Assembly: GCF_004010195.1 (NCBI RefSeq)
Contig: NC_057719.1
Span: 24,932,750 to 24,996,749 of the forward strand
Length of the DNA stretch: 64,000 bases
Source of the DNA: Chiloscyllium plagiosum
Lineage: Eukaryota
Direction of reading: 5' to 3'
Of the stretch, positions 21,682 through 64,000 are shown one piece after another. Under the pieces are notes generated by a model. The model did no database searches. It was given only the letters and a program-made list of their open reading frames with translations, and was not told where the DNA came from. A program made the position numbers and the translations under genes. The number at the start of each line of letters is the position of its first letter. Position 1 is the stretch's first letter.

Positions 21682-22367
21682 GATGGAAATGTGTTGCTGG
21701 AAAAGCGCAGCAGGTCAGGCAGCATCCAGGGAACAGGAGAATCGACGTTTCGGGCATAAGCCCTTCTTCAGGAATGGGGAAAGTTTGTCCAGCAGGGTAA
21801 GATAAAAGGTAGGGAGGAGGGACTTGGGGGAGGGGCGTCGGAAATGTGATAGGTGGAAAGAGGTCAAGGTGAGGGTGATAGGTCAGACTGGGGTGGGGGC
21901 GGAGAGGTCGGGAAGAAGATCTCAGGTTAGGAAGGCGGTGCTGAATTTGATGGATTTGACTGAGACAGGCTGGGGTGAGGGGAAATGAGGAAACTGGTGA
22001 AATCTGAGTTCATCCCTTGTGGTTGGAGGGTTCCTAGCCGGAAGATGAGGTGTTCTTCCTCCAACCGTCGTTTTGTTGTGGTCTGACGTTGGAGGAGTCC
22101 AAAGACCTGCATATGCTTGGTGGAGTGGGAGGGGGAATTGAAATGTTGGGCTACAGGGTGGTTGGGTTGGTTGGTCCGGGTGTCCCAGAGGTGTTCTCTG
22201 AAACGCTCCGCAAGTAGGCGGCCTGTCTCCCCAATATACAGGAGGCCACATCGGGTGCAAAGGATGCAATAACTGATATGTGTGAAGGTACAGGTGAATC
22301 TGTGGCGGATTTTCCAGCAACACATTTCCATCTCTGATCTCCAGCATCTGCAGACCTCACTTTCTCC
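21682..22367 (-). mobile_element. Neptune-type PLE (GIY-YIG endonuclease C-terminus, pLTR, inverted tail), 14-bp TSD
   Basis: ORF 21927-22331 FTCTFTHISYCILCTRCGLLYIGETGRLLAERFREHL; TSD tagtagtaattaag at 21668-21681 and 22368-22381; intact minus-strand hammerhead core at ~21744-21771. Confidence 0.92.
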
Positions 22368-24485: not shown

Positions 24486-26986
24486 GGTCTCGATTAGAAT
24501 GGTGCTGGAAAAGCACAGTAGGTCAGGCAGCATCTGAGGAGCAGGAAAATCGACGTTTTGGCTGAAGTGTTCTGAGGCGGAAGATGAGGTGTTCTTCCTC
24601 CAGGCATCGGGTGGTTAGGGAGTGGTGGTGGAGGAGGCCTAGGACCTGTATGTCCTCGGCACAGTGGGAGGGGAAGTTGAAATATTGGGCCACGGGGCAA
24701 TGGGGTTGATTGGTACGGGTGTCCTGGAGATTTTCCCTAAAGCGCTCTGCAAGAAGGTGTCCAATGTAAAGGAGACTGCATCAGGAGCAACGGATACAAT
24801 AAATGACATTGGTGGATGTGCAGGTGAAACTTTGATGGATGTGGAAGGCTCGTTTGGGGCCTTGGATGGAGGTGAGGGGGGAGGTGTGGACGCAGGTTTT
24901 ACAATTGCTGCGGTGGCAGGGGAAGGTGCCAGGACAGGAGGGTGGGTTATTGGGGGGCTTGGACCTGACCAGGTAGTCACGGAGGGAACATTCTTTGTGG
25001 AAAGCGGAAAAGAGACAGGCATAGCTGGGGCCCATGCGGGTGCCAATGGCTGCCCCTTTCATCTGGAGGAAGTAAGGGGATTTGAAGGAGAAATTGTTAA
25101 GGGTGAGGACCAGTTTAGCCAAACGAATGAGTGTCAGTGGAAGGGTATTGTTGGGGACGTCGGGAGAGGAAGAAATGGAGGGCTTGGAGGCCCTAGTCAT
25201 GGCGGATAAGGTGTAGAGGGATTGAATGTCCATGGTGAAGAGGAGGTGTTGGGGGCTGGGGAAACAGAAGTCTTGGAGGAGGTGGAGGGTGTGAATGGTG
25301 TCTCGAACGTATGTGGGGAGTTCCTGGACTAGGGGGGATAGGACAGTATCGAGCTAGATGGAGATGAGTTTGGTGGGGCAGGAGTAGGCTGAGACAATGG
25401 GTCGGCCAGAGTGGTCAGGCTTGTGGATCTTGGGAAGGAGGTAGGATCGTGCTTCGGAATACTTCAACCCCAGGGCATCAATGTGGACTTCACCAGTATC
25501 CTTATTTCCCCTCCCCCTTCCTTACCCCTTCCAGCTCAGCATCATCCTCATGACCTGTCCTACCTGCCAATCTTCCTTCCCACCTATCTGCTCCACACTC
25601 CTCTCTGATCTAGAATATAGAACATAGAACATAGAAAAGTACAGCACAGGACAGACCCTTTGGCCCACGAGATTGTGCCGAGGGTTAATCCTAATGTAAA
25701 ATATAGTAACTTAACCTACGCATCCCTCAACTCACTGCTATCCATGTGCATGTCCAGCAGTCGCTTAAATATCCCTAATGACTCTGCTTCCACCACCACC
25801 ACAGGCAACGCAGTCCATGCATCCACAACACTCTGCATAAAGAACCTTCCTCTTACGTCCCCTCCATACCTTTCTCCTAATATCTTAAAACTATATCCCC
25901 TCGTACCAGTCAATCCTGCCCTGGGGAAAAAGTCTCTGGTTATTGACCTTATCTATTCCTCTCATTATCTTATATACCTTGATCAGGTCTCCTCTCTTCC
26001 TCCTTCTCTCCAGAGAGAAAAGTCCGAGCTTATTCATCCTTTCTTCATAAGGCAAGCCCTCCAGTCCAGGCAGAATCCAGGTAAATCTTCTTTGCACTCT
26101 CTCCAAAGCCTCTGTATCTTTCCTATAGTAGGGTGACCAGAACTGGACACAATAGTCCAAGTGTGGTCTCACCAGGGACTTATAGAGTTGTAGCAAAACC
26201 TCATGGCTCTTAAACTCGATACCCCTGTTAATGAAAGCCAAAACATCATATGGTTTCTTAACAATCCTATCTACTTGGGTGGCAATTTTGAGGGATCTAC
26301 GTACTTGCACACCCAAATCCCTCTGTTCCTCCACACTGCCAAGAATCCTGTCATTAATCCTATATACAGCATTCGAGTTCGACTTTCCAAAATGCATCAC
26401 TTCGCATTTATCCAGGTTGAACTCCATCTGCCATTTCTCAGCCCAGCTCTGCATCCTGTCAATGTCATGCTGCAGCCTGCAATAGCCATCGATATATCAA
26501 CGGCACCTCCAACTTTTGTGTCATCTGCAAATTTACTAACCCACCCCTCAACCTCCTCATCCAAATCATTTATAAAACTACAAAGAGCAGAGGCCCAAGA
26601 ACAGAGCCCTGCGGGACCCCACTCAACACTGACCTCCAGGCAGAATAGTTTCCATCTACAACTACTCTTTGCCTTCTGTTAGCCAACCAATTCTGAATCC
26701 AGATAGCCAAATCTCCCTGCATCCCATATATCCTGACTTTATGAATGACCTACACCTTCATCCCCACCTCCATCCACCTATTGTACTCTTGGCTACCTTC
26801 TCCCCAGTCCCATCCCCTTCCATTTATCTCTCCACCCCGGAGGCTCCCTGCCTACATTCCTGATGAAGGGCTTTTGCCCAAAACATTGATTTTCCTGCTC
26901 CTCAGATGCTGCCTGAAACACTGTGCTTTTCCAGCACCACTCTAATCTAGACTCTGATGTTCAGCATCTGCAGTCCTCACTTTTGC
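24486..26986. mobile_element. Neptune-type PLE (minus-strand RT/GIY-YIG remnants, inverted pLTR), 15-bp TSD, itself interrupted by a CR1
   Basis: ORF 24781-25233 MDIQSLYT..LVLTLNNFSF..QMKGAAIGTRMGPSYACLF..FTCTSTNVIYCIRCS (PLE RT plus endonuclease); TSD ctcactgaagatgtt at 24471-24485 and 26987-27001. Confidence 0.88.
25613..26745 (-). mobile_element. CR1 LINE nested in the PLE pLTR
   Basis: ORF 25891-26454 WQMEFNLDKCEVMHFG...LYKSLVRPHLDYCVQFWSP; tail (tagaaca)n; flanks tgatcta/tgaccta rejoin the pLTR. Confidence 0.9.
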
Positions 26987-30306: not shown

Positions 30307-30690
30307 ATGAACACCAACTAGCCACGAAACGACACGACCAGCTATCCTTAGTAGCCACACACGCAGATGACAAGCAACATGAATTCAACTGGGACAACAC
30401 TACTATTATAGGACAAGCCAAACAGAGAACAGCCAGGGAATTCCTAGAGGCATGGCACTCATCCACAGATTCAATCAATAAGCACATCGACTTGGACCCA
30501 ATATACCGGCCACTGCAACGGACAGCTGGAACTGACAACCGGAGGCGGCCGATTCAAACCACTACAAATGCCGGAGAAAAGATCACAGAAGCGCTTCACA
30601 GGAGGCTCCCAAGCACTGAGGATGTCACCTAGACAGGGGACGAAACGTCTGCAACACAAATTCCCAGCTCGGCGAACAGAACCACAACAA
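30307..30690 (+). mobile_element. Poseidon-type PLE 3' end: GIY-YIG C-terminus and hammerhead-containing pLTR
   Basis: Open frame EHQLATKRHDQLSLVATHADDKQHEFNWDNTTIIGQAKQRTAREFLEAWHS...INKHIDLDPIY; little decay. Confidence 0.85.
30613..30652 (+). ncRNA. Minimal type I hammerhead ribozyme motif (PLE-associated)
   Basis: GCA-CUGAGGA-U-GUCACCU-AGAC-AGGGGAC-GAAA-CG-UC|UGC; stem I GCA/UGC; palindromic ACGU stem III. Confidence 0.75.
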
Positions 30691-33600
30691 TCTACTTTGT
30701 TTGAGATGACCTTGGAAAGCTGGATTAATATCCATTTGCTGTTGCTGAATGGAATACTTACTAAGTATATATTCTATGCATGGAAGAATGAAAGATGCAC
30801 CATATTAAAATATTTCTGATTTTGGATTAATCATACAAAGATAAACTAAATATTGGTCATATTACCAGCACATTAAATACAATGAAAATGAATTCTCTAG
30901 AATGATCCACATTTTCTGCTAATACTTTGCAATGTCAGTGATAAATATGAACATTCTATGGCTATGAATCAATATGGCTACCTACAATAGAAGCAAAGTG
31001 TTATCCTGTACATGTTTGTGTACTGTTTGTATATGTTTAAAACAAAATGTAAATTATGTAAATGACATCTTCATTTGATATGGATGTCATTACTTAGAAG
31101 AAATAAATCCAAATATTTAGATTGTGGGAATTGACTGTGCACAAGTAGCTACCACATTTTCTACACTACAACAGTGACTATATTTCCAAAGTACTACTTT
31201 GGCTGTAAATCACAATGGGACATCCTGCAATATGCCAAATAAATACAAGTCTTTCCATTTATGTGAAGGTAGACGTGATCTTGGTAAAAACTATGAATGT
31301 TTAAGCTGGTGAATGGATTGCCTCTTGAACTTGCAGATAAGGCAAGATGAAAAATCACTTTTTATCTAATATAAACCAAAGTAAACTGATAAACATTCAA
31401 TTTATCAAAGCCTCTTTGCTCTTGCGTTCTTTCCAATTTACAAAATCCAAAATGTCCTTTCTTAAATTATATCTGTCTGCATAAAAAGAATCATGTCTAT
31501 GAGCATCTCACTGTCTCTGTGCCTTTGGAACTGTCAGGATCTTTCTCTTTAAATGGGTAATCCTTTTTATTGTTTATCTTGAAAATTCATTACCTCGTTT
31601 TTTCTGCACTAAATTCCATTTGCCTCCTTCTGCCTGGTCACCTAATCTCTTTTATGCCTTCATGAAGTAATTCATCATCTTTCTTGCTATTTATTCTTAA
31701 TTTTATGCTATCAGTTTTGATATTGTGCTCCCTGTGGTAAAGTCCACAATTATCAATCAAGAAATAAAGTGGGCAAAATTCCTCTACAATGCTTTTCTAA
31801 CATTAGCAAAACTTATTAACCTCAGGCTTCTGTTCAACAGCTTACTTTCTATTCATGTCGCTGAATTTCTTTTCATAGAACTTCACATCATGCCTCCTGT
31901 GAGGCGCTCCCTTGTGGATATTCCAAAACTTATAGGTATCTTTTCTTTATTCTTGTAAGGGATGTGGGATGAAAAGCAAGGCCAGCATTTGATGCCCAAA
32001 TCTGATTTGCCTTTGAATTGAATGGTTTGCGAGATGATTTTTAAAAATCAAGGTGTAGCATCAACATGTAGGCCAGACAGCGTAAGGATAGTAGATCTTT
32101 CCTCAAGAGTACATTAGTGAACTAAATATTACATGGTTGCCATTACACTCGCTTTGAATTCCAGATTTTTATTGAACTCAAATTTCATCATCTGCCACTA
32201 TGGAGTTCAAACTCATCTCCCAAGAACATTAGATGAAAGCTCTTGATTACTAATGCAGTGATATCACCACTGAACTACTGTCTCTCCACGATGTTTACAT
32301 TTATTTTATCTCAATCATATTTAATAACTTGAATCTGTCAAATTTAATTTCTGTAATTGGTTTTATGTTATATTTTTCATTGTTCCATGTATTTCCAATG
32401 GCTTTGCAATATTAATTTACCCAAATCAAAATCAATTTAGTTCTTGATCTTGCTTCTTTTTTCTGTGTTTAAATATAATCAGTCTTTAAGCAAGAATACT
32501 GAAGTATATTTAACTGTTCTGAAGAAGTCATAGTAGATTTAAACAAAAACAGAGTGCTAGAGAAACACAGCAGGGTCTGTCAGCATCTGTAGAGAAAAAA
32601 AGAGTTTATGTTCAGAGTTTAATGAAGACGCGAAATGTTAACTCTGTTCTCTCTACAGATGCTGGCAGATCGGCTGAGTTTCTCCAGCACTTTCTGTTTA
32701 TTTTAAAATATATTAGATGTTGTACAACCTGCACAGCCGATGATCGAACAATTCTGTGATTTTGTATGGCAAAAGTCACAAATAGCTCTTATCCTGAAAT
32801 TATGAAAAAGGGTAGCTAGACTTAAAATGTTAACTCTGCTTTCTATCCAGTGATGCTGTCAGACCTGCTGAATTTCTCCAGAAATTTCTGTTTTTGTAGC
32901 TCTACGTCATTCACATTCAGTTTTTTTTTACAGCTGTGGAGAATATACTGTCTTCAATATTAAGCAACACGTTTATTATAAAAATGTAAATTCAACTCAT
33001 AATTATGTGGGAGTGAGTGAAGGCTGTAAACCCGAGTAATTATGTGGGAGTGAATTGAAGGCTATAAGCCAATCTTCGAGTAGAGATTTTTAAAAAGTGG
33101 GAATGTAGATAAATAAATCAGAAAATGTTGAAGATACACAGCAGCTCTGTTCTCGCCTGAAAGAAACATAAGGACAAAAGGGGGTCAGGTCTCAGTGTGA
33201 CACAGAAAGTGTCTTGAGTTAAAGTTTAAATATCTTAAATTTAATTCTAAACCTGGCTTGTGTTTGTTTCTTTTAAATCAGGATACAAGCAACAATCGCA
33301 ACACACTCAGCCTTCGTCCTTCCAGTTAATGCGATCCACTCAGACGTTAATCCGTTCACAGGAGGAAAGCACAAGGCTTTCATTCTCTCTTCTCATGTTG
33401 GTGCTGTTGCTTAGCGACGGAGCCGGTGGCTGTGGCGGTGTCGGCGCGTTCTCCCGCGGGGCACCGCTCGGTGGCGATGTCGCCGGCGGCCTCCGGGGGC
33501 GGCTGGAGCCTCGCAGTTGGGGAGCTCTCTTGACCCAATCGGAGAGGGCCTGGTGAGACAAGGAGCGGGTCTTTCAGTAACCTAGCCTCCGATTGGACGC

Positions 33601-33779
33601 ATGGTTTGGGCTTGTGGTCCAATCAGGTGGGGGTTTGGGCGGCGGGGTTGGGGAGGGAGAGGTGATGGGGATGTGGGTTTGGAGTGGGGTTCGAGGCGGT
33701 AGCGGATCGGGTCTGTGCTGAGCAAGCGGTCTCGGGAATTTTGTTGGAAGGGAGGATCGCGGGCCCAGTCCGGAGTGTG

Positions 33780-33932
33780 AGGAGGGGGACGAAGAGAGAG
33801 AGAGAGGTGGCGACGACGACGACGACGACGACGGAGGGGGAGGTGTTCGGGAAAGAGCTGGAAGGGCAAAGGTCTACTCTGCTGAACCCGGCTACTCTCG
33901 CTGGGAAAAAAAGAGCGGCGGAAAAAGTTCAG
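33780..33932 (+). other. BTBD7: Probable non-coding exon 1 (5' UTR) of BTBD7; start approximate
   Basis: GC-rich segment downstream of CCAAT boxes ending at a good donor CAG|GTAAAG (33932/33933); exon 2 begins in the UTR, so an upstream exon is required. Confidence 0.65.
33811..33833 (+). repeat. (CGA)7 trinucleotide microsatellite in the putative BTBD7 exon 1
   Basis: cgacgacgacgacgacgacgacg read directly. Confidence 0.9.
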
Positions 33933-36549
33933 GTAAAGGAGCCCCCCCCCGGCCCAGGAGAGCGAGCTCGGGGGTCCCCGGTGTCGGCAGCTTCCCTCGA
34001 CCCCTGCGCTGCCTCTGTCTGGAGGAGGAGAGGGTAGTGATTGAAGGGGCTGTGTCTACGTTTGTGTCAGTGTGTGTGTGGACGAGAGAGTGGAGACTTC
34101 TAATTATTGGTGGCATTCACAACATATTGCTGAGCGGCGGAATTGCACCGGGGTTTTGGGAATGGTTTGGAGAGGGGGGAGGCACTTTCAGGTTCCCAGT
34201 GGAGCTGCTTCTCCCTAATTGCTAAGATTCTGGGGGGCGGGGAGACACTGGATGCAATTTGCATCCCTCCGAATCGCAACGAAGAGTTAAAGGGAGTGGG
34301 GAGGTAACTGTTTAAGGTGGAATGGGGTATGCAACTGGTTGCTGACATGTCGTCTTCTGTACCCCCAGTCCTCCCCCAAAACACATGCATAGATCTGTTT
34401 TACTGTTAGTGAACAATTTCTGCAACATGTAGGCTGCAACAGGAGTGCAAACTGAGTAATAAGTATTAGTCATTTTTCTGCATTTTTCACTGGGTGGGTT
34501 CTGTCAGAATGGGTGTAATTTTTATGGAATATCTTCCCTGTTTTTTTTGGTTCTGTCACAGTCCAGAGATATGTCTACCTTTGACATTGCAGGACATATG
34601 CATTATTTATACACATCCACACACATACTGTTTCCTTCTTGGGCACAGGGCAGGTATTCAAGTTAATAGAATGACTGGAAAATGCAGAAAATGTGATAGT
34701 TATTGGTTAATTTTGGCATTAGGGAATATGTTGATGTTCAGATGTTATTTTGCTGCTTAGAGACTTGGAGTTTGTTCAGATTTATGGGCTATGAACAGCC
34801 TGAATTCATGTTAGTATTTAGTGCTCTTGCATTGGAAAAGTGGCCTGCTGTTGGTGGAATATTGATATTTGGGCAGTGGTGGTCCTAAGATAGGCCCTTG
34901 TGGTGCTTTGGGATATTAGTAGTTTTTTTTTGTAAAATAATTTTGTAGTTGCATGCCCACTTTCTCAATTTACAGTAGGTGTTGACTTCCAATATGAAAA
35001 ACCTCAATCTCAAACAATTAGAATTGTATAATAGAAGGAAGATTTGAGGAGTACTGAATTGTGGTAAAGCAGTCAAGCCATTCAATGTACATTAGCTGAA
35101 GTAGCCATGAAACAAACTAGTTGAATGGTATCAGTTGACTTCTTTTACTGTGATTACAACTATCCACATTTGTACGTTTCGCCAAACAGCTGTAGGAAAG
35201 CAATGAGGAATAAAAGCTCCCGAGCAGTACTTCTACCAAATGTAGAATTGACTTAGTTGGGATCACGTAGTACTTAACAGGGATATTTTTGGTTTGTAAC
35301 TTGTTGGGATATGCATTTGTTCAAACATTTGAGACAATTTTTCTCTAGTTGCCTGTCAGTGTGTGCTATCAACCACTTCTTGCCAATTTACAGACGCCTT
35401 AATCAGAGGAGTGTTCTAGGATTCTGAGATGACTTCCCATCACCTTGTTTCTGCTGATAGAAATGAATGCATGAAGATGGTTAGGAACTTGAGAGTAATC
35501 CTAGGGAGGCAGCAATGTAGGCATTTGTGTATATGCACATGCAGTTCTACATAGGTTTGTATACAGGAAGTAACATACATTTCTTGTCACATTTTTAACC
35601 ATACTCTTGTCAACAGTTACAGTTCAAAATGGCAGCACATTCAGTTTTGCTGCGTCAGTTGTCAAAATGGAATCATAGTGTCATAGAACACAGAAGCAGG
35701 TCCTTTGGCCGAACTGAACGCTTTTATCATTATGTAGCTTTGCAGCATTAGCCCTTCATGCCCTACTGGCTCTTTCAGAGAGGTATCTAATTCATCCCAT
35801 TCCCTGATTTATCCCTATAGCCTTGCAGTTTTTTCCTCTCAATTTCTTATTCAGTTTTCATTTTGAAAGTTATCAACTTGATTTCCACCACCTTTTCTGG
35901 CAGTGCACTCCAACATATAAACACTTGCCACACAAGATAATTTCTCTTCATGTTGCCTCTCTACATCTGTGTCGCCTTGTACCAATCTTTCTAGTATTGC
36001 ATAGTTTTCCTTTAGCTAGATAACATCATGGTTAGACAAATTGTAAGATAACAAGGTTTCTGAATTTCAAGCTCCTTAATGTGAATTATGAAAGTGATTT
36101 TTTTTCTTTGTGGATAACAGTATATGTACAACTATCATTGTGCTGACTGTAAGAAGTTTTTAAGGTCATAATTGCAGAGGCTGAAATGGGCAGCTTTTCT
36201 AAGAAGCCTATCGTACCTGTCCATATGGGGTTAAGATTACAATAAACTGTTAAAATATTCCAAAATGCAAATACTTCTAGTATGAAGCTCAATTAAACAG
36301 TTTGAAAGTGTTTAAAAATTGAAAATTTAAAGCCAAATGTACTACTTAGGAGCAGAAGTAGGCTATTTAGCCCATTAAATCATGTCCACCAATCAGTGTT
36401 AGTTCATGGCTGATCTGATAATCCTCAATACCACTTTCCTGCTGTATCCCCATTACCCTGATTCCTATAATGTTTAGAAATCTCTGTCTCAGCCTTGAAT
36501 ATACTTAGCCCAACCGTGTTAGCCTTCTGCTATAAAGAATTCCACAAGA

Positions 36550-37991
36550 AGTGCCGGAAGACTGGAGGTTGGCAAATGTGGTGCCACTGTATAAGAAGGG
36601 TGATAAGGATAAGCCAGGGAACTATAGACCAGTGAGCCTGACCTCGGTGATGGGCAAGTTGTTGGAGGGAATCCTGAGGGAGAGGATGTACATGTATTTG
36701 GAAAGGCAAGGACTGATTCGGGATAGTCAGCATGGCTTTGTACGTGGGAAATCATGTCTCACAAACTTGATTGAATTTTTTGATGAAGTAACAAAGAAGA
36801 TTGATGAGGGCAGAGCAGTAGATATAATCTATATGGACTTCAGTAAGGCGTTCGACAAGTATACCCATGGGATACTGATTAGCAAGGTTAGATCTCATGG
36901 AATACAGGGAGAACTAGCCATTTGGATACAGAACTGGCTCAAAGGTAGAAGACAGAGGGTGGTGGTGGAGGGTTGTTTTTTAGACCAGAGTCTTGTGACC
37001 AGTGGAGTGCCACAAGGATCGGTGCTGGGTCCTCTACGTTTTGTCATTTACATAAATGATTTGGGTGCGAGCATGAGAGGTACAATTAGTAAGTTTGCAG
37101 ATGACACCAAAGTTGGAGATATAGTGCACAGCAAAGAGGGTTACCTCAGATTACAACAGGTTCTGGACCAGATGGGCCAATGGTCTGAGAAGTGGCAGAT
37201 GGAGTTTAATTCAGATAAATGCAAGGTGCTGCATTTTGGGAAAGCAAACCTTAGCAGGACTTATACACTTTATGGTAAGGTCCTAGGGAGTGTTGCTGAA
37301 CAAAGAGACCTTGGAGTGCAGGTTCATAGCTCCTTGAAAGTGGAGTTGCAGGTAGACAGGATAGTGAAGAAGGCGTTTGGTATGCTTTCCTTTATTGGTC
37401 AGAGTATTGAGTACAGGAGTTGGGAGGTCATGTGGCGGCTGTACAGGACATTGGTTAGGCCACTGTTGGAATATTGCTTGCAATTCTGGTCTTCCTATCG
37501 GAAAGGTGTTGTGAAACTTGAAAGGGTTGAGAAAAGATTTACAAGGATGTTGCCAGGGTTGGAGGATCTGAGCTGCAGGGAGAGGCTGAACAGGCTGGGG
37601 CTGTTTTCCCTGGAGCGTCGGAGGCTGAGGGATGACCTGATGGAGGTTTACAAAATTATGAGGGGCATGGATGGGATAAATAGACTGGGGTTGGGGAGTT
37701 CAGATATAGAGGGGGTAGGTTTAGGGTGAGAGGGGAAAGATATAAAAGAGACCTAAGGGACAACTTTTTCGCGCAGAGGGTGGTACGTGTATGGAATGAG
37801 CTGCCAGAGGATGTGGTGGAGGCTGGTACAATTGCAACATTAAGGCATTTGGATAGGTATATGAATAGGAAGGGTTTGGAGGGATATGGGCTGGATGCTG
37901 GCAGGTGGGACGAGATTTGGTTGGGATATCTGGTCGGCATGGACGGGTTGGACGAAAGGGTCTGTTTCCATGCTGTACATCTCTATGACTC
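36550..37991 (+). mobile_element. Young 5'-truncated CR1 LINE with a 392-codon RT ORF, in BTBD7 intron 1
   Basis: PEDWRLANVVPLYKKG..YRPVSLTS..QHGF..YMDFSKAFDK..GVPQGSVLGP..SKFADDTK. Confidence 0.95.
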
Positions 37992-40611: not shown

Positions 40612-43600
40612 CTATCTTTGTCCTAAGTAGCAGTATTCATGGGTTTCTTGAAATGTGCTGTTGAAATCTGGGAATATTGCTGCAGTGCATTTTGTAGATG
40701 GTACATGTTGCAGCCACAGTGTATTGTTGAAACTAATGCTATTGCAGCATGTCCTTTCAAAATGAAAACATGAGCATTTATCTTTAGATGATATTAAATA
40801 CATTTTAAAATGAAACAATTATGATTCCGGTACCAATTGTTAATCAGTACCATTATATTGTCTAATTTTGTGTGTGATTAGGAATGCAATCTCATTGTGA
40901 GGAGTAGGTTAAGCATCCAAAATGGTATAAAGTTACTTTCTGTTGTGAAGATGAAGTTGCCATAGTCCTATCAGACTAAAGGGCCACTCTGTCATTATAG
41001 AAATGACTGCTGGTGATTTAACCTGAGACAAGGGGCGAGGTTGAGAAGGGGAGTCCTTCATGGTAAGCTCAGCAGGAATTGAATCCACACTCTTGGCATC
41101 ACCCAGCTTTGCAAACCATATGTTCAGCCAACTAAGCTACTGACCCCCTTTTATAGTTTAAGTGGGCTTATGCATATAACATCTTTTCAAATATATTTGT
41201 CCTATTATATGCAGATAAGGAGTGCAGTGAATACCACTGATCAAGAAATCGCATGTTGGAATAATACAGGTCTTGCCAACTTTAACAGCAGGACATCATG
41301 TAAATTTAATGGCTCTGTTTGCAGCTCAGTATCTGGACAAATTGAAGGCAAGTGTTTTGGTAAAATGGGGACACTTTGGCAGCATAGTTTGGGAGTCAAT
41401 GTGCAGTGGTCCTTGATTACAGTAAGTTTGCATGAGGGTCTCCTTACTAAATCACAAGCAGTGCTGGAAAAGTGCTTCTGTCCACAGGCCATGGTCCTTG
41501 CCTCACTTTAGCTGCTAGATTTTCTGAATATGAGGAACCTGACCTGCAGCTGTTAAATCCAAATTGATAAAACCTAAAATACACTCAAAACATTAATTCT
41601 GCTCTCTCCACAGATGCTGCCAGATGAGCAATTTCTATTTTTGCTTGATAAAATCAAAGGAGTCCTTATTTAAATGTTGTTAATTTCTCTCCATGGTTAC
41701 TCATCTAACAGTAAAGCTCCCCTACTTTGAATGGAAGGCTTGTTCACGACTGGTTTTCTGTTTCTAAGAATTTATCTCTTGCCCATTTCCTTGCCATTCA
41801 ATGTTATTAACATGCCCCACACCCTATACTATCTCATTGTGTACTTTCCACAGTGTACATTGAGTCTTCAATTACAAATAAGGAGCTCCATTATTAATAG
41901 TCTCTCTGATCATTTAGTGTACCCACTACATTGCTCTTTATCCTGGTCTGCTGTACCACAGAATAGTACAGACAGAAATTATGAATGGGCGATTGTCATT
42001 TATCTTTGCTTTTTTTTTATTTGGTTGTTACTTTGGTTTCCTGAGGAATGGAATTGTTATAAGTGTTCCTGGGATTTTGAGGTTAGATTTTCCGACCAAA
42101 CTTCTGTTGAGTTTTTCCTTTTGAATTCAAACTGCCCTCCCACCCTGCCCAAAAAAGGGGTTTTAATTTGTTACTGCCTTTACTACTGTTCTACCTAATT
42201 CTTATACTTGAGCAGTTGATTCCCCTGTTAATGACCCATTAGGTCTTGGGGCGTTTGAAAAAGTTCCCTATGTATTTGGAAAATTTTCTGTTAAATTTGA
42301 TTGAAAAGGTTTTTGGAGTTGTTTTTCAGGACAAATGGATGCTGTAATATAGGTGTCCCATTCAAGAGTACACGTACACATATGTGACATCGAGGATTAT
42401 TGCCTAACCTCAATTTAATCGTTATTTCCCATAGTGTGAATTTGAGATTGAATGTTGCATTTAATGATAACATTAAATTCCTCCCCCTCCAGTGTAGAAT
42501 CACAGCTGTGTTTTGTTTTCTGATTAAGTGCTTTCTTGTATTTGCCATCAGCAATTTATGTAAAACCATTACCTTTTTAAAAGCTTTGCTATCATTCGCT
42601 TGCAATGTTAAAATATTTAGCATTTTGTGAATGCCTTGGGTTGTAAATAATATGACATTGTAAGAGTGTTAAGATAATATTCTTTCACACCTGCTTTTAG
42701 GCTTTTTTGTTTCTGTCTTCCTTCACTAGTGTTTAGAGTCAATCAATTGCAGCATCCATCATTTGAGGTGATGTGTGTAATTTTTTTTATCCTAAGTAAT
42801 CTAGCATGTCATGGGTGGGGAAGAATTCACAAATTATCTTAGGGACACAGAGTTTGGAAGCCCCAGGTTCAAGACCCATCTGCTTCAGAGGTGTGTCATA
42901 CAGCTGAACAGGTCGATTAAATAAAATCTGTTGAAACTTTATTGCTGGAACAGCGCAGCAGGTCAGGCAGCATCCAGGGAACAGGAGATTCGACGTTTCG
43001 GGCACAGGCCCTTCTTCAGGAATGAGCAGAGAGTGTTCAGCAGGAGAAGATAAAAGGTAGGGAGGAGGGACTTGGAGGAGGGGAGTTGGAAATGTGATAG
43101 GTGGAAAGAGGTCAAGGTGAGGGTGATAGGTCGGAGTAGGATGGAGGCGGAGAGGTCAAGAAGAAGACTACAGGTCAGGAAGGCAGTGCCGGGCTGGAGG
43201 GATCCGGCGGAGACAAGGTGGGGGGAGGGGGGATGAAGAAACTGGTGAAGTCCAAGTTCATCCCCTGCGGTTGGAGGGGTCCCAGTCGGAAGATAAGACG
43301 CTCCTCCTCCGACCGCCGGGTTGTTGTGGTTTGGCGGTGGATGAGTCCAATGACCTGCATATCCTCGGTGGAGTGGGAGGGGGAGTTGAAATGCTGTGCT
43401 ACAGGGTGGTTGGGTTGGTTCGGCCGGGTGGCCCAGAGGTGCTCTTTGAATCGCTCCGCAAGTAGGCGGCCTGTCTCCCCAATATAGAGGAGGCCACACC
43501 GGCTGCAGCGGATGCAGTAGATGATGTGGGTGGAGGTGCAGGTGAATCTGTGGCGGATATGGAAGTTTCCTTTGGGGACTTGGAGAAAAGTGAGGGGGGG

Positions 43601-44090
43601 AGGTGTGGGCGCAAGTGTTGCACCTCCGGCGGTTGCAAGGGAAGGTGCCGGGAGTGGAGGGTGGGTCGGTGGGGGGTGTGGATCTGACAAGGGAGCCNNN
43701 NNNNNNNNNNNNNNNNNNNNNNNNNNNNNNNNNNNNNNNNNNNNNNNNNNNNNNNNNNNNNNNNNNNNNNNNNNNNNNNNNNNNNNNNNNNNNNNNNNNN
43801 NNNNNNNNNNNNNNNNNNNNNNNNNNNNNNNNNNNNNNNNNNNNNNNNNNNNNNNNNNNNNNNNNNNNNNNNNNNNNNNNNNNNNNNNNNNNNNNNNNNN
43901 NNNNNNNNNNNNNNNNNNNNNNNNNNNNNNNNNNNNNNNNNNNNNNNNNNNNNNNNNNNNNNNNNNNNNNNNNCCTACTCCGCCCTATCACCCTCACCTT
44001 GGCCTCTTTCCACCTATCACATTTCCCCCGCCCCTCCTCCAAGTCCCTCCTCCCTACCTTTTATCTTCTCCTGCTGAACACTCTCTGCTC

Positions 44091-44126
44091 ATTCCTGAAG
44101 AAGGGCCTGTGCCCGAAACGTCGAAT
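44091..44126 (+). ncRNA. Minimal hammerhead ribozyme motif, copy 1 (predicted cleavage after 44122)
   Basis: AUUC-CUGAAGA-A-GGGC-CUGU-GCCC-GAAA-CG-UC|GAAU. Confidence 0.75.
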
Positions 44127-44376
44127 CTCCTGTTCCCTGGATGCTGCCTGACCTGCTGTGCTGTTCCAGCAATAAAGTTTCAACTTTGATCTCCAGCATC
44201 TGCAGACCTCACTTTCTTGCAGTCTTCTGCAGTCTTCTTCTTGACCTCTCCGCCTCCATCCTACTCCGACCTATCACCCTCACCTTGACCTCTTTCCACC
44301 TATCACATTTCCAACTCCCCTCCTCCAAGTCCCTCCTCCCTACCTTTTATCTTCTCCTGCTGAACACTCTCTGCTC

Positions 44377-44412
44377 ATTCCTGAAGAAGGGCCTGTGCCC
44401 GAAACGTCGAAT
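44377..44412 (+). ncRNA. Minimal hammerhead ribozyme motif, copy 2 (predicted cleavage after 44408)
   Basis: Identical to copy 1, 286 nt downstream. Confidence 0.75.
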
Positions 44413-47400
44413 CTCCTGTTCCCTGGATGCTGCCTGACCTGCTGCGCTGTTCCAGCAATAAAGTTTCAACTTTGATCTCCAGCATCTGCAGACCTCACTT
44501 TCTCCTTAAATAAAATCTGTGCCAAGTTTAGAGAAAATGCAGAAATCTTCCCATGTCATATCGACATAATTGTGGATATATTAAAGAGCAAGCATTCTGA
44601 TTCAGGTGTATGGTTCCAGTATTAAATTTTCTGTTAAAAGTTGCCCAAAGAACTGGATTTTTGGACACTGTGAAATGATCTACAGAAGTGTCAGGCACCA
44701 CTATCTTGAAGTCTCTCAAGACATCAAGTGGGCTCTTAGGGTTTTGCTTGAAGGAGGAAGGTTTGGTAGTTTTAACACTGAAGATATCATTGCCTGGTTG
44801 TGCCCTTGCAGAGGGAGTAACTCAGCTAACCCCATACAATTGCATTTTCCCAGTAACCTCAAATATTTTTCTTCAGATAACTGTTCAATTCCCTTTTGAA
44901 AGCCCTAATTCAATCTGTCTCCCCCACAGTCTCAGGCTATTTATTTCAGATCCTAAAAACCTTGTGCTTTAAAGCAAATTTTGCCTTCTGTAGACTTTAG
45001 TTTTTTGTTTAATTTCTTTAAATTGCTGTCCTCTGGTTTTTGACTATTCTATACTTTTCTGTATCTACTATGTGCAAATCCCACATAGTTTTGAATACCT
45101 CCATCAAATTTCCTTTCAACTGTCTTTTCTCCAAAGGGAACCGCCAATGTCTCCAAGCTACCCATATAACTTTGATTCTATATTCATTTTCTCGTTTGTT
45201 TTATCAAAAGATGTTTTTGCTTGGGGAAAAAAAACTGACTTTTGTTATAGTTTGGTTAGAGATGGGGCAATGTTGATATTCAAGCTTACTCTGCTGTAGA
45301 GTGGTATTCCACAGATTTAACAATGGATAATATGGGTTGTAAACAAGGAAACAGGCAAATTTGGCCCTATTTTCCATGCTCATGTTTATGTTCTACTCGA
45401 CCTCCTCCCATCTTTGCTCTTCTAAATCTACCATTATAACGTCCTATTTCCTTCCCCCTCCTGTACTTGTCTAGATTCCCCTTAAATGCATCTAAATGCA
45501 TATCCTAGACCAACCATGCTTTCTATCCTAAGGTCCAAAGTGCACTCATCAATAAACAGCCCACGATGTTCAGTACTATTACAACTCTTCTGATATTGAA
45601 GTAGCCTGAACGCAGTGAGATCTGGCCAATATTCAGGTATGGACTGAAGTGTCAAGCAAAAACCATCTCCAAAAAGACAGGAACAACATTTTATGAGTGA
45701 AGGTTAACTTGCCACAGTCCCGGAGGACCATTGATTGGCGCTCTCATTGGAGATGTGAAATGCATCGCCTGAGATTGTAATGGGGGCAGTTTCATTAAGT
45801 TGCTTTGCAAAAATCTGTTACAAACATGTAACTTTTATTCCTTGACATTGAAAGAATAATTCTTTCTAATGTACATTTATTGTATAAATAAACTTGTTGT
45901 CTTGCTTTATTGTAAGATTCTCCTAAGATTCTGAATGTTCTTGATATATTTTCATTTGCAAGTAGCTGCAAATTTTGAAATGTTTCATAAATATCATTTA
46001 TGAATGATTATAGATAAATTTACTAAGGTTAAGCTTCTGGCTTTGTATTTTGCTGATCATATGATATATCAGGCAAGTGAGTCATTTTAACAAGTTGCAC
46101 AGATTTGTATTGCCAATGTCCCATTACAGTAACAGAATTAAAGCAATTCCAAGTTTGTGGTTGAAAAAGAAATGTAGGATGACTCTTAGCTCATATTTAT
46201 AGTTGTACACTTTTCTGATATTACCCTGGAGTATCAAAATAATTGTCTCTGAGATATATGGATCTGTCTCTGAGTGCAGCAATTCACAAATATTTGGGTG
46301 GCACAAGTCAAATGAAGTTTAGTTTAAAAAAAAAGTATTTAAATCCCTTGAGTAAAGCCATGGCTTCTACAACATTCTATTCAGTGTGTGAATCTGACCC
46401 TGTGCATGTATGAAGTAAAACTAGATTGCTCCCCAGCTGTCTTTTGCCTGCAGCATGTTTCTAATTCCCAGTGCACTTAAATGTCTGACTCTTTTCTATC
46501 TTGAAACTGACAAATTGTGAAGAAAAATTTTCAGATTCTTTGTTCTTCTGTGTTAAGAATTGTCCAGATTGATTTCTTTTTGCCATTTGACAGATTTGGT
46601 TAGTGTGATTTATAATATTTCTAGCAAGTTTTGGGATGATTCAAGGCGGCAGTACCTTGTGACTTCTGTAATAATGCTTTAGCTTGGTGGTCTCACCATC
46701 TTCAACCCTCATAATGGCTTTTTAACAGTCTTCTCGAATCAACTAATGGTTGTGGAAGAAGATTTACAGTAACTTTTTCAAAAATATATTTGAAGTCAAA
46801 CTTGTATTTATCATCTTTTGATATTTTACTAAACCATGGTGCAATGGCTCAGTCTATGCTGGGCACTATATTTAAATAATTAACTAAAGGAAACAAAATA
46901 TGGAATAATGTATTTCCTCATTAGGAAAGTAGGTATTTAAATTTGTATAATTTCTTCTGAGTTTATCTTGGAAGCTGTAAAATTAGAGTATTATCAAATT
47001 TTTACAGGGGCTGCTTTCCTTCTCTTATCTGTACCTATTTCAACTTACTGACAGTAACCAGGGTATTGAAGTTTCATAGGTTTGATAGGTTTTCATCTAC
47101 TTGAAAAATAGCATGATAATTGAAGATGTCTACAACAGAATATAAATTTTGCAATGTAATTTTTTTAGAAGTTGCTGGATTGGAAAATTCAGATATAAAG
47201 AGTTAGGGTTAAACTGTAAAAGTTTAAGAATTTGCCACTTCAAAATATTATATAAAATGAGAATATTGGAATTAACTTCACTGTTGGATCATAAATTTCT
47301 CACTGTTGGTGCTGAGGTGAATACCTTTTCATTATGGAAGGAATATTTGGTAATAGTTGCTCAAGTTTTGAAGAGATTATCTAGTAAGGCATGCCATCTC

Positions 47401-48989: not shown

Positions 48990-50160
48990 GCAGCGATCAG
49001 TACTTGGATCCTAGCCATTCACAATATTATTCATGATTTAGATGAGGGAACTACAAATATTATCTCCCAAGTTTGCAGACAACACAAAGTTGGATGGGAG
49101 ATGAATTATGAGGAGGTTGCAGAGATACTCCAAGTGTGATTTGGAAAAGTTGTGTGTGGGGCAGTTGCATGCCAGTTTGAAGTATGATTTGGAGAAATGT
49201 GAAGTTATCCACTTTGGTAGCAAAAACGCAAAGGCAGATTATCTGAACGGCAATAACTTGGCAAAGTTGCAACAAGATCTGGGTGCCCTTGTACACCAGT
49301 TGCTAAAAGTAAACATGCAGGTGAAGCAGGCAGATGATATTTGGTGTTCGTTGTGAGAGGACTTGAGTACAGGAGCAGGGATGTCTTGCTGCAATTGTAC
49401 AGTCCCTTGGTCAGACCACTGCTGAAGTATTATGTGCTGCTTTGATCTTCTAATCTGACAAATAATTTTTTTAGTTTAGAGGCTTACTAGACTGATTTCT
49501 TGGATAGCAGAACTGACCTATGAAAGAGACTGGTTCCGTTAGGGTTATTTATTGGAGTTTGGGAGAATGGGGAGAGGTCTCGTAGAAACCTATAAAATTT
49601 CAGTAGGAGAGCTCTTTCCATGCTTTATGACTCTGACTGGATAGAGTAAACACAGGAAAGATTTTCCCAATGAACGGGGCATTTCACTCCAAGGATACAG
49701 TGCAGGCTATTAAGGAGGGAGAGGAGGAGAAATTTCTTGGCAGAGCGTGTTGAGGTTGTGGAATTCTCTACCATAGAATGCAATTTAGGCCAAAATATTG
49801 AATTCTTCAAGAAGGAATTAGGTATAGTTCTTGGTTTAAAGGGTCTGGGCAAAAGTGTGAACAGGTGAAAGTGAGGACTGCAGATGCTGGAGATCAGAGT
49901 CAAGATTAGTGGTGCTGGAAAAGCACAGCAGGTTGGGGAGTATCAACGTTTCAGGCACCATTCCTTGTGAAGGGCTTTTGCCCGAAACGTGAATTTTCCC
50001 TGCTCCTCGGATGCTGCCTGACCTACTGTACTTTTCCAGCACCACTCTAATCTTGACTGCAAAAGTGAGAACAGGTTACTGAGTTGGATGATCAGCCATG
50101 AGTATATTGAATGACAGATCAGATTTGAAGGGCTGAATGGCTTACTCCAAGCACTGCTTT
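48990..50160 (+). mobile_element. Old degraded CR1 LINE
   Basis: KCEVIHFGSKNAKADY motif in ORF 49108-49356 and CR1 3' UTR remnants. Confidence 0.7.
49867..50058. mobile_element. 192-bp fold-back PLE mini-element with 18-bp TSD, inserted in the CR1 3' end
   Basis: TSD gcaaaagtg(t/a)gaacaggt at 49849-49866 and 50059-50076; decayed core cttgtgaagggcttttgcccgaaacgtg. Confidence 0.85.
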
Positions 50161-53118
50161 CTGTTTCAATCCTCTTTCCTGTGGAGATGAGATAGGCAAG
50201 AACAGCTGACATCTTTCACTAAAGAACATTCTTATAAAAATTCTAACCTGTGTCATCAATCAGTGGTAATCTCAGTAATGGCAACTGTGAAACTAAATTT
50301 CAATTCTAGATTTAGTAACTAAATTTACATTCCACTAGCTGCTGTACTGTGTTTTAAACCCATTTAAAATAGAAAAAAAGGGAGGTCCGCATTTCTCAAA
50401 AGAGCTTCTTTAAGGGTTCCTTAGAGAACTGTGAATCTGGATTATTAAACCGCTGACATTATCACAATTTTGATGTCTCCCTTTTGCTAAATGTAGTTTG
50501 TGTTGGAGGCTAATAGTGATGGCATTGGTCTTCTAGTGTCTGGAAGAAATTGTACATGACTTAATGACATGCAAGTAATTTGACAAGAGATTCAGCAGTA
50601 GTGGTGGTGGAATGGGTGGTATCAGTGTACACATTGCATACCCATTGTCAGTGTCCATATGTAGATGAAACCACAAGTAGGCACTGGGACACTCTGGAGG
50701 TAGTGGTGCTCTAACTGTGGTTGGATAGAGAGGAGTGGAACCAGGTGAAGGTTTTCACAGTTAGGAGAACCATTAGACTATGACATTGTGATCAACTGTC
50801 AAAGCATACAAAGAGGTCAGTTGAGAGCTAATACACTACAAGAAATTCCATCAGTAATATTTTTTTTCAAGACATTTCAGTGCTGTAGAAGGACAGAACC
50901 TTATTGAGGACTTTCAGCTGTGCAAAAAGTGGACTTGGAGATGGGGTGGTCATTTTTTTTTTTTTAGGACGTTTTTGTTCCTGGGTAGTAATTAGGAAGG
51001 AAATTAGAGATGTGAGATAGTAGGAGTACAGAGATGAACAATTTGGGGAAATGTTTTTAGGAGAGCAAGTGGTAGGATTCATGGACCAAGAGAACTTAAT
51101 GAGAAGAGATTGAGAAATGAAAGATGTGGCTTTATGGGTAGAGTATAAGGACGCTATCAGAAAAGGTAATTTTAGTCTGGGTGGCAAGTGGGAAAGAAGA
51201 CTAGTTTGAGAGAAGGCATTGTTAATTTATCTTCATACAACAGGCTAATGATAGAGTCAGTGCACTGTAAGAAGTATGACTTTTGATGATCTGTGTTAAA
51301 CTAGTTATAGCTTAATATATCATTGCACTCCAGACCAAAATGAAAATCGTATTGGGAAAGTAATCTGGGAAATGGCAATTCATTTGATGGGGCCAATTAT
51401 ATGAGAAAGGTGTCGACCAAATCCATAGTTGGTAAAATATCTTGTTTGAATGGAAGGGAAAAGTATGGAATTTAAAAGTGCAATTATAAGTCATTCAGGA
51501 GGAGTTTAATTTTCAGGAGTGGACAAAAAGAAATAAAAGGATGAAGATGTGGATGGTGAAGGATTTAAAGAAGTGATCAGAAATAAGCATGTTAGTATGA
51601 TGATGGAAACAGATCCCACTAAAAGGAGCAAGACCTAGGAGATATCTTTATTTGTTCATGAGGGGTGGATGTTGCTGACTGAGCTAGCATTTATTGCCCA
51701 TCCTTAATTGCCATAGAGAATGACTGGAGTGCATTTCTCATGCAGCACTGAGACTCCCATGATCGATTCCAATCTAACTTCTGTCAGGTGTGACTAGTCT
51801 TTTCAGGGTTAGTCCCTCGACCCTCTGTTTTCCTCAGTCCTCTGAGGAGAAAGCTGTCAAAGTAGCTGTAAATGTCAGAATGCACTAACTGACTGCTGGA
51901 AAAGGGGGTGTGGCTGGCCTGCCTTTTGACCATTTCATACTACGAAGGGTCAGTCAAAATAGAAGTATGGCTCCACATTTCTAAGGAACCCTTAAAGAAG
52001 CTCTTTTGAGAAATGTGGAGCTCCCTTTTTTTCTATTTTTAAAAAAAGGCTGAGTGGCAACCTGCATGAACTGCTGCAATCTGCGAGATGTAAGTACACC
52101 AATTGTCCTTAAATTTAGGGACTTCCCCAATTTTAATCCAGCAATGGTGATGTTGCAGGATGTTGTGTGGCATCAAGGTGAACTTGGAGGTGTTGGTGTT
52201 CGCATGAGTCTGCTGTACCTTGTTTTTCTAGGTGGTAAAGTTGGCAGGTTTGAAAGTCTTTGGCAAATTGTTGCAGTGCATCATGTGGATGGGAAATTGA
52301 AATTAATGAATACTAATATTATTTCAAAGACAGTTGGAACTTTTTAAATATTTGAAATATTTTTTGAAAACCAGCATAAGTTGCTTGCTAAAACATCTGT
52401 TAATTTGTCTAAATTTAGTGGCATGCAGCCTATTGACGAATTATGTTGCTTGAAATTAAATGCTGGGCTGTTTCTGTTTTCAGATAGATGATTGAAAGCA
52501 TTTTTTGAGCTGTACTTTATAAAAAACAAAAGTTTGACTAACTACAAAACTGGATTAGGAAGATTAGTGTGTTCACAGCTGGCATAGTCTTGTTTTCAAT
52601 GTGCAATTTGGAACAGTGATCAAGAGCACACATTTGACCACAGACTGACTGCAACTAAAGCTATAAGATTGCAAACTAGGATTGCAAATCCAAGATAATT
52701 GTTGTTTTTCTGTTTATTTATTATATCATTTTTATAGCTGTCAAATTCGATTTTTAAGCTTTGTTAACTTTGAAGTTTACTGGCTCTATCTTGGAATCAG
52801 CTGTTTACCCTGAGATGTTAGTGGTCCAGATTTCAAATGTTTTATTCCAGTTTTTTTTTGAAAGCATAAAAAGTACTTGAAATACAGGCATGAGTTTGGA
52901 AGCAAACAGCCTAATCATTGAGCAGCATCAGTTAAAGCTTGCACATTTGATGTAATGATTTGTGTCTCTATGCATTCTGTTGGATCTGTGCAGTACAAAA
53001 TATTTGCTTGATGCTATCAGTTTCCACATGTATTTTGGTGGTTTGCAGAATTTGCTTGGTGTGTTTTCTCATTGTTTGCCTTCATGTGCCACTTATTTTT
53101 GTTTTAGATATTCCAGAA

Positions 53119-53172
53119 ATGGCTGAACATAACTCGGAGATAATAGATCTGCATTTGATGACCAGCTGGTGA
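53119..53172 (+). promoter_or_regulatory. Upstream ORF in the BTBD7 5' UTR (MAEHNSEIIDLHLMTSW*)
   Basis: ATG in gaaATGG context 11 nt into exon 2; stop 38 nt before the main ATG; a second uORF (MLRCLT*) lies at 53186-53206. Confidence 0.55.
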
Positions 53173-53210
53173 ACTAGCAGCCAGAATGTTGCGTTGTTTG
53201 ACCTGAGACA

Positions 53211-53292
53211 ATGGGTGTCAATGCATCTAACTACCCTCACTCTTTCTCCCAGAGGATAGGAGGAAATTCACAGGCTCAACAAACATTTATAG
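53211..53292 (+). CDS. BTBD7: BTBD7 first coding exon (exon starts 53108 after ttttag; ATG 53211; 82 coding nt, MGVNASNYPHSFSQRIGGNSQAQQTFI-G)
   Basis: Translation matches the recalled N-terminus of human BTBD7 (MGANASNYPHSCSPRVGGNSQAQQTFIG); donor AG|GTATGT at 53292/53293; phase 1 joins correctly to the next exon; MGxxxS myristoylation-type start. Confidence 0.95.
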
Positions 53293-54917: not shown

Positions 54918-56000
54918 GAACGTCCTCCTATTTACATCAAGGATATGGATGCGAATCAAAATTATATAGCCTTGAACACAGCCATGAGAAACCACAAGAC
55001 AAAAAGAAAAAGAGCTCTGGTCTGGCAACTCTGAAAAAGAGATTTATAAAAAGACGTAAATCTAATCGGTCTGCTGATCATGCAAAACAGATGCGTGAGC
55101 TCCTTTCTGGATGGGACGTAAGGGATGTAAATGCATTAGTGGAAGAATATGAAGGCACTGCAGCTTTGAAAGAACTTGCATTGCAGGGTAATTTGGCACG
55201 ACCGGATGCACGGACTTTGCAAAGAGATTTGGCGGACCTTTATGAATACAAGTACTGCACTGATGTTGATTTAATATTCCAAGACACTTGCTTTCCTGTA
55301 CATCGAGCTATTCTGGCAGCAAGATGTCCCTTTTTTAAGACTTTGCTTTCATCCTCACCTGAATATGGTGCTGAGATTATGATGGACATAAACACAGCTG
55401 GCATAGACTTGCCTATGTTTTCAGCATTATTACATTATCTATACACCGGAGAGTTTGGGATAGAGGACTCCAGGTTCCAAAATGTAGAAATTCTGGTACA
55501 ACTTACTGAAGAATTTGGAACCCCAAATTCACTGGATGTTGATATGCGAGAACTTTTTGACAGTATGTGCTACTATGATGCCGTTCTGAACTTCTCATCT
55601 GATTCTGAATTAGTGGAACCATTTGGAGCAACATCACATTGTTTAGATGAAGAACTCTGTGGGCATAAGGCTGTCCTATCTGCACGTTCTCCGTTTTTTA
55701 GAAATCTTCTCCAAAGACGAATAAGGACTGGTGAAGAAATTACAGATAGAACTCTGCAGACTCCAACTAGAATCGTGCTAGATGAGTCCATCATTCCAAA
55801 GAAATATGCAAAAGTAATTTTACATTGTATGTACACTGATCTTGTAGATTTGTCTCTGGTACTACATTGTAATCCATCTGTAGGGAGCCTGAGTGAAGTT
55901 CAAGCAATGGTTGCAGGAAAAGGTAGCATGTCAAGAGCTGAAGAAGCAATGGAACTTTACCACATAGCACTTTTTCTTGAGTTCAACATGCTTGCTCAAG
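54918..56000 (+). CDS. BTBD7: BTBD7 large coding exon (1083 nt) encoding a basic NLS-like segment and two BTB/POZ domains
   Basis: ORF 54893-56020 contains KKRFIKRRKSNRSADHAKQMRELL, YCTDVDLIFQDTCFPVHRAILAARCPFF and HKAVLSARSPFFRNLL; acceptor catag| at 54917, donor AAG|GTGGGT at 56000/56001. Confidence 0.98.
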
Positions 56001-63300: not shown

Positions 63301-63338
63301 AGTAAGTTTATAGTTTGACAAAGCTAGTTACCTAAATA

Positions 63339-63406
63339 GCTGAAAATGTGTTGCTGGAAAAGCACAGCAGGTCAGGCAGCATCCAAGGAGCAGGAGAATC
63401 GACGTT
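63339..63406 (-). mobile_element. 68-bp PLE pLTR fragment with 12-bp TSD
   Basis: TSD gttacctaaata at 63327-63338 and 63407-63418. Confidence 0.85.
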
Positions 63407-64000
63407 GTTACCTAAATATGCAAACTCAGATTTCTTAGAGTGAGTCCACTGTGCTTGACCACCTGTGATTTGACAATCTTGAGTGAGAATGGTGCTATTA
63501 TAGGAAATGGAAAACTGGCTGCTTGTTTGTGCCAAACATTAAACTGAATTTTATTTTTTAGGTTGCTCTTCCTCATCGCGAACAAAACAATTCCCCTAAA
63601 ACTAACTTAAAAACCAGTTCAAAACATTTTCAGGAATGTTTGTTACTTAACAAGTGGGAGGCTGCCTTTAAATAGAGAAAATGTTAGACCTTGTTTAAAC
63701 ATTAACTGATAGAGTTGCTGTAAACTGATAAAGTATCTTCCTTTTGCAAAAATGGCAAATGCCATTTAGAATTTCCTTTCCGTTTAATTTAAATTTTCTT
63801 GGATTCCAAAGTAAAAGAATATTGAAAGATTTGCTTGAATTTCAATTTATTCATTATGTAGCTTTCTGTAAACATAAAAGGAGTACTGTTTACATAAAGC
63901 CCATCCCTAAAGCATGCAATGTAACTTCACACAGGCTGTATTCAATTATTGCTTAAAAATGTGTTGCTGGAAAAGTGCAGCAGGTCAGGCAGCATCAAAG

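Follow-up and report, generated by a model that had tools for sequence, protein, structure and literature searches.

A young, inverted Penelope-like insertion upstream of a shark BTB coding sequence carries tandem hammerheads that are likely uncut passengers of a doubled-end sub-lineage

Results

We analysed a 64,000-nt window of the Chiloscyllium plagiosum genome (NCBI RefSeq assembly GCF_004010195.1, contig NC_057719.1, positions 24,932,750 to 24,996,749 of the forward strand; all coordinates below are those of the window), in which a repeat-rich segment at 42932-44505 lies upstream of the coding sequence of a BTB gene, presumably BTBD7. An initial annotation had described a tandem pair of hammerhead ribozyme motifs here, faced by an antisense copy, and had proposed that the pair might cut the host pre-mRNA under the control of that copy. 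Segment 42932-44505 was bracketed as a single insertion by a perfect 15-bp target-site duplication. It consists of pseudo-long terminal repeats (pLTRs) and part of the open reading frame (ORF) of a Penelope-like element (PLE), arranged as follows.

42917..42931, plus strand: left target-site duplication, 15 bp, identical to 44506-44520; its final 2 nt also fit the element end
42932..43184, minus strand: inverted pLTR without tail, 243/244 identical to unit 2
42988-43023, minus strand: minimal type I hammerhead on the strand opposite to the host gene, with its cut predicted after C42992
43175..43697, minus strand: 3' remnant of the PLE ORF, from translations, with C-x4-C-x2-C linker, one frameshift, GIY-YIG domain and stop at 43177-43175
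43698..43973, no strand: assembly gap of 276 N in the sequence, containing the inversion point
43974..44217, plus strand: pLTR unit 1, with its tail minus the final 2 nt, from repeat comparison and a 5-site haplotype
44089..44095, plus strand: initiator-like heptamer whose A (44091) opens hammerhead stem I; second copy at 44375-44381
44091-44126, plus strand: minimal type I hammerhead 1, predicted cut after C44122
44123..44408, plus strand: 286-nt unit, the hypothetical product of cleavage at both predicted sites
44218..44226, plus strand: 9-nt junction between tail 1 and unit 2, a duplicate of the pLTR start that marks the sub-lineage
44227..44505, plus strand: pLTR unit 2 with 35-nt tail (44471-44505)
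44377-44412, plus strand: minimal type I hammerhead 2, predicted cut after C44408, 286 nt from cut 1
44506..44520, plus strand: right target-site duplication, 15 bp, identical to 42917-42931

The direct repeat comprises 244 nt at 286-nt spacing, and units 1 and 2 differ at 6 sites. The inverted arm matched unit 2 at 243 of 244 positions, as expected of the near-perfect inverted pLTR annotated initially, and unit 1 with 97% identity over 211 nt. The 35-nt tail was present on the plus-strand end of the insertion only. Read on the minus strand, the left arm runs through the linker motif, the frameshift, the GIY-YIG domain and the stop into the tail-less pLTR. A profile search identified the GIY-YIG domain (PF01541) at 43178-43696 (minus strand) with 23.2 bits against a cut-off of 22.6 (E 8.6e-5). 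Upstream of it, one frameshift apart, the C-x4-C-x2-C sequence is a Neptune-type CX2-5CxxC linker motif, suggesting that 42932-44505 is likely a PLE insertion of the Neptune clade. According to Craig et al. (2021; PMC8557442), this motif in the linker between reverse transcriptase (RT) and endonuclease (EN) marks Neptune and also occurs in Nematis and Naiad. The target-site duplication and the GIY-YIG remnant in the inverted arm are features beyond the initial annotation. With one difference in 244 nt and a perfect target duplication, the insertion is young.

The last three bases before the gap (43695-43697) equal the first three of a recurrent pLTR boundary seen at 43184 (minus strand), and reads of the family show a sequence that departs from them at one base. 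Because they match that boundary and depart from the family, the inversion point may lie at 43695-43697, and the gap may be much shorter than 276 nt. Contigs of other samples entered the element from each flank (left, X1, X2 and X8; right, X1, X5 and X8). They reached 24-25 letters only, where bridging of the insertion required 31, and they fit an insertion that is also present in other individuals.

The three hammerheads were identical over 36 nt, and their annotated coordinates and strands and the GUC cut sites 286 nt apart were confirmed. Each consists of a 4-bp stem I, CUGAAGA, one unpaired A, a 4-bp stem II and GAAA-C-GUC, with a palindromic ACGU and no stem III loop. The CUGANGA and GAAA boxes, the NUH triplet, the bulge before stem II and the palindromic stem III bases are those of the minimal PLE hammerheads described by Cervera and De la Pena (2014; PMC4209133), so the motifs were correctly recognized at the outset as pLTR hammerheads built to work as dimers. 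Rfam gave no matches across the 64-kb window at gathering thresholds. The exact 34-nt hammerhead motif had 11,575 matches genome-wide and its reversed control had none, indicating that the hammerheads are not due to chance, yet not rare. A 24-nt pLTR end pattern had 19,334 matches genome-wide. Among the first 100 matches of the pLTR 3' pattern, 48 were minus-then-plus pairs less than 400 bp apart; therefore, an antisense copy is the norm in this family. We take the heptamer at 44089-44095 to be initiator-like from its agreement with the consensus YYANWYY.

To place the tandem in its family, we retrieved all 57 sister loci that share its junction. The 31-nt pattern across the tail-to-pLTR junction occurred at 59 places in 58 loci, all exact (one mismatch was permitted). 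Thirty loci had their own 12-16-bp target duplication, a count that excludes L073 and L103, whose long flank matches lie inside tandem repeats. The 3' ends fell at the tail in 30 of the 58 loci, at a tail-less site 35 nt earlier in 22, and elsewhere in 6. Endonuclease sequence ran gap-free into unit 1, the junction and unit 2 in 8/58 loci, indicating that the source element was ORF-pLTR-pLTR. Both hammerheads were exact in 32 loci, including 21 of the 30 that have no gap within 300 nt. The 5-site haplotype of unit 1 in the window recurred in gap-free L060 and L076 and in L091. Within 3 kb upstream, an inverted pLTR end was present at 23 loci and an intact inverted core at 17, some of which may be neighbours; two 5'-end assignments (L080 and L047) were misalignments and were disregarded. 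A doubled-pLTR 3' end was thus inherited by 58 insertions. This is a modestly new fact: literature searches, which did not cover supplements, found no paper on a shark doubled-pLTR lineage, and a closed preprint supplement might list similar families.

These loci also bear on whether the assembly created the second pLTR by a duplication next to the gap, the outcome that the initial annotation had named as fatal to its proposal. The tandem does adjoin the 276-N gap, many sister loci begin at shared positions beside gaps, and the whole element is spanned by no independent record. The units nevertheless differ at 6/244 sites, the unit-1 haplotype with the identical junction stands in gap-free L060 and L076, and the 30 loci that are gap-free within 300 nt have distinct flanks and private substitutions. 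Because the junction occurs at 58 loci, with own duplications and gap-free haplotype mates, the tandem appears genuine, neither an assembly duplication nor specific to BTBD7, and we consider the duplication very improbable. It is possible that a real sister haplotype was misplaced at the window locus. A device peculiar to this locus was not borne out, since 17 of the 58 loci also have the intact inverted core.

The same family contains a second inherited tandem junction, with hammerheads 224 nt apart, at 40 places in the genome (L041/L134, L042/L135-L136 and L137-L141). L042 carries it twice in succession, and other spacings of 291 and 320 occur. Of the 224-nt and 286-nt forms, the former is possibly the closer to a retrozyme. 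Five junction loci (L050, L058, L068, L085 and L095) have 646-1105 nt of upstream sequence in common, joined at the initiator-like site. This sequence is an RT-like fragment of a long interspersed nuclear element (LINE), also found at 68-685 and 37245-37868 of the window; L050 and L068 each have their own 14-bp duplication. The group appears to be a re-mobilised composite that carries host flank. At 193 nt upstream of the cut, shortly ahead of the ORF stop (43184 on the minus strand of the window), lies a second recurrent 5' boundary. In L060, L065, L072, L082, L087, L092, L093 and L097, unit 1 is joined at this boundary to several unrelated sequences, and ten further loci start there beside gaps. 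It is possibly a second transcript start.

We used the 5' ends of family copies to ask whether the copied RNAs had been cut. The first 100 matches on contig C1 of a pattern downstream of the cut yielded 99 arms, 96 of them usable; two long alignments that failed the end check and one arm beside a gap were dropped. Most arms (86/96) reached upstream of the cut site, 8 ended downstream, and 2 ended within 3 nt of it. Fifty of the 96 stopped at -36..-27, with the modal 5' end at -32, which is the A of the initiator-like heptamer (44091). As this A also opens stem I, the likely start of the copied RNA is -32. The templates copied into the genome were mostly uncut. For each junction copy whose end lies at the tail or the tail-less site, the second hammerhead of the template RNA was uncut or rejoined.

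The activity published for related motifs is low: cleavage of minimal hammerhead dimers was weak but real (PMC4209133); in an anole PLE, uncut RNA was the main insertion substrate, the ribozyme required protein, and no RNA-seq ends were described at the cut site (PMC11167929); and 8/9 Xenopus dimers failed to cleave (bioRxiv 2026.07.22.740005). Within the roughly 2% that was sampled, the poly(A) single-cell RNA run X21 contained 737 family reads and X22 contained 0; libraries of this type are unsuited to short uncapped or circular RNA. The X21 reads had no end pile-up and no joints, and they left the unique flank 44537-44800 uncovered. These reads therefore weigh neither way. Back-joined short reads, which had been suggested as a check, are not diagnostic, because a 44408-to-44123 join equals the uncut linear hammerhead of thousands of copies.

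A proto-retrozyme would read the same loci differently. Transcripts from within the pLTR, started at the initiator-like site or at the upstream recurrent 5' end, would skip the inverted arm, fold with protein help and release the 286-nt unit; some units would be circularised, and the circles copied or not. Two consecutive units at 286-nt spacing, each with a complete type I hammerhead, fit the operational definition of a retrozyme, which asks for two or more such units of 150-450 bp in succession. In the fold model, the nested double hammerhead lies merely 11-15 kcal/mol above the minimum energy when the inverted arm is left out. Low but real dimer cleavage (PMC4209133), the re-mobilised non-coding dimer derivatives, the 224-nt junction at 40 places and the single trimer point the same way. 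Rolling-circle copying would be expected to leave multimers; 57 of the 58 loci have one junction only, and the trimer, L067, has alleles unlike those of a cut-site circle. Its first unit is of unit-1 type and its last of unit-2 type; in the middle unit, the change of type falls between positions 41 and 99 (a comparison based on three informative sites), upstream of the cut at 191. Because the change is not at the cut, L067 argues against a cut-site circle and is in keeping with slippage or unequal exchange. At none of the junction loci does the 5' end coincide with cut site 1. The motifs have a 4-bp stem I and no stem III loop, where canonical retrozyme hammerheads are expected to have a full helix I and a loop 1-loop 2 contact; PMC7229834 keeps canonical type I retrozyme hammerheads separate from minimal PLE motifs. 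We therefore regard a proto-retrozyme as unlikely, and the suggestion that a circle is the replicating form found no support in these counts. There is a similarly small chance that we see a retrozyme at birth, that is, a PLE sub-lineage with a cis hammerhead pair whose short non-coding dimer RNA is mobilised in trans at dozens of loci and in part cleaves itself into ligated 286-nt circles. If so, the 58 near-identical loci with and without the inverted arm would be a natural series for the change from PLE end to retrozyme.

The host gene is defined in the window by the following features.

about 33400-34000: CpG island
53108..53292, plus strand: first coding exon of the host BTB gene (ATG 53211), which sets the host strand
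54918-56000, plus strand: host BTB exon, BTB domain PF00651 (E 2.7e-22)

The insertion sits upstream of the host coding sequence, and both tandem hammerheads are on the host sense strand. We presume the gene to be BTBD7 from its resemblance to that gene and an Atlas lead of 0.87 (below 0.9). Placement of the insertion in intron 1 is valid only if no extra untranslated exon lies between 34.0 and 53.1 kb.

The initial annotation had suggested a possible active dimer in the BTBD7 pre-mRNA, with the inverted copy as an RNA switch. In the fold model, with the N gap left unpaired, the duplex of the inverted arm and unit 2 had -527 kcal/mol and that of the arm and unit 1 had -441. In the minimum-energy fold, each base of the antisense hammerhead was paired to its counterpart in hammerhead 2. 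With the arm present, the nested double hammerhead lay about 235 kcal/mol above the minimum. The arm would be made first and pair over 211-244 nt, so that the model speaks against an active dimer. The predicted capacity of the inverted copy to pair with a pLTR stood, and its role as a switch did not: because pairing of either unit strips the other of its required cis partner, both pairing states would be off, and the arm is predicted to give a fixed off state with no second state to switch to. Literature searches, in which supplements were not covered, found no paper that describes the gating of intronic hammerheads by inverted repeats.

A regulated switch, in which the inverted copy would turn cleavage of the BTBD7 intron by the tandem on and off for the host, could draw on two intact sense hammerheads on the host strand, on an arm able to pair with either unit, and on an insertion that appears not to be private to the assembly. 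Set against these are the two predicted off states, the youth of the insertion, the recurrence of its layout at sister loci, and the window copy, which has no sign of selection. We consider such a switch extremely improbable. Domesticated intronic hammerheads of the amniote ultraconserved type exist. Their profile of few copies and deep conservation differs from the 11,575 exact copies, near-zero divergence and intact target duplication seen here.

Elsewhere in the window, older remnants of the same PLE family, several of them inverted pairs, lie at 5265-5822, 12313-12514, 18998-19701, 21676-22367 and 24503-25523, with further remnants at 26747-26983, 49864-50041, 63338-63406 and 63953-63996. 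Hammerhead-like motifs of other families occur at 4031-4070 and 30616-30649. LINE RT remnants were found at 7617-9490 (minus strand) and 36536-37729 (plus strand); from the translations, we take the former to be a broken L1/Tx1-like ORF2 and the latter a 397-aa CR1-like frame.

Discussion

These results make it very probable that the locus is a young 5'-truncated and 5'-inverted PLE insertion, likely of the Neptune clade, from a two-pLTR sub-lineage, and that its hammerheads are likely uncut passengers in the host pre-mRNA. A host RNA switch would have been striking; the evidence points to a passenger.

We infer the following course. Once, an RT near the 5' end of one pLTR RNA may have jumped to the tail of another, and this template jump would have created an ORF-pLTR-pLTR master. 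RNAs of the master with both hammerheads uncut would then have been copied many times, primed at one of two internal sites, one at the end of the tail and one 35 nt before it. At the present locus, one target strand probably primed synthesis at the tail of unit 2 and the other did so at the tail-less site; the resulting cDNAs would have been joined head to head within the gap. In the host pre-mRNA, the antisense arm would be transcribed first and form a duplex of more than 200 bp (211-244 nt) with either unit. Such pairing would remove the sole cis partner that a stem-III-less hammerhead requires, leaving a long intronic hairpin and no cut.

Several points weigh against this interpretation. 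Because the telomerase-like RT that shares an ORF with the endonuclease in EN+ PLEs is absent at the locus, the clade call depends on the linker motif. The inversion point is hidden by the assembly gap, and many sister loci adjoin gaps in a fragmented assembly (28/58 within 300 nt upstream). Exact truncations genome-wide numbered 66 at the cut site against 44 and 24 at control sites, in unnormalised counts whose fixed parts differ. Of those 66, 37 are one inversion junction, in which an arm ending at stem I is joined via a 4-nt stem-I complement; stem-I microhomology appears to explain this junction, and cleavage would be unneeded for it. Inserted copies reveal only which RNAs were copied, not the absence of cut RNAs. 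The fold energies leave out tertiary contacts, kinetics, proteins and helicases. A transcript from 44091 would leave out the inverted arm and keep both hammerheads.

The inheritance of the junction shows that RNAs with two intact hammerheads in cis were copied uncut, and the 30 tail and 22 tail-less ends support the two-priming-site scheme of the anole element in a second, likely Neptune, family. The junction loci are ready constructs for studying whether cutting by PLE hammerheads takes place in vivo and how pLTRs give rise to retrozymes.

Most features of the locus have precedents. EN+ PLEs of the Neptune clade have a C-terminal GIY-YIG domain with the CX2-5CxxC linker and a pLTR, as at this locus (Craig et al., 2021; PMC8557442). 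Partial tandems with an inverted 5'-truncated copy, a 30-40-bp tail on one end, target duplication, an initiator-like motif in the pLTR and assembly gaps at the inversion are also PLE features (PMC8557442; Arkhipova et al., 2013, PMC3846280; Schostak et al., 2008, PMC2377424). In the shark element, by contrast, the 3' end holds the partial tandem (ORF-pLTR-pLTR), and 58 insertions inherited a single junction. Minimal PLE hammerheads (Cervera and De la Pena, 2014; PMC4209133) have the same core boxes, the bulged base before stem II, G10.1-C11.1, the palindromic 15.2-16.2 and the short stem I of the shark motif, whose stem II has just 4 bp; opposite-strand pairs 100-700 bp apart were already known there. 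Poseidon PAc of the anole (Frangieh et al., 2024; PMC11167929) has two internal priming sites bracketing the tail, which match the 30 and 22 ends of the shark loci, and extends both target strands on an uncut RNA template, as we propose here. PAc belongs to a different clade, and the shark scheme is drawn from genomic copies alone. Non-LTR retrozymes (Cervera and De la Pena, 2020, PMC7229834; Li et al., bioRxiv 10.64898/2026.07.22.740005) resemble the shark dimer in their units of 150-450 bp, which are arranged head to tail and contain one type I hammerhead apiece, their derivation from pLTRs and their long target duplications. The shark loci differ from them in forming only dimers (and one trimer), in having minimal hammerheads, and in that 8 of the 58 are still attached to endonuclease sequence.

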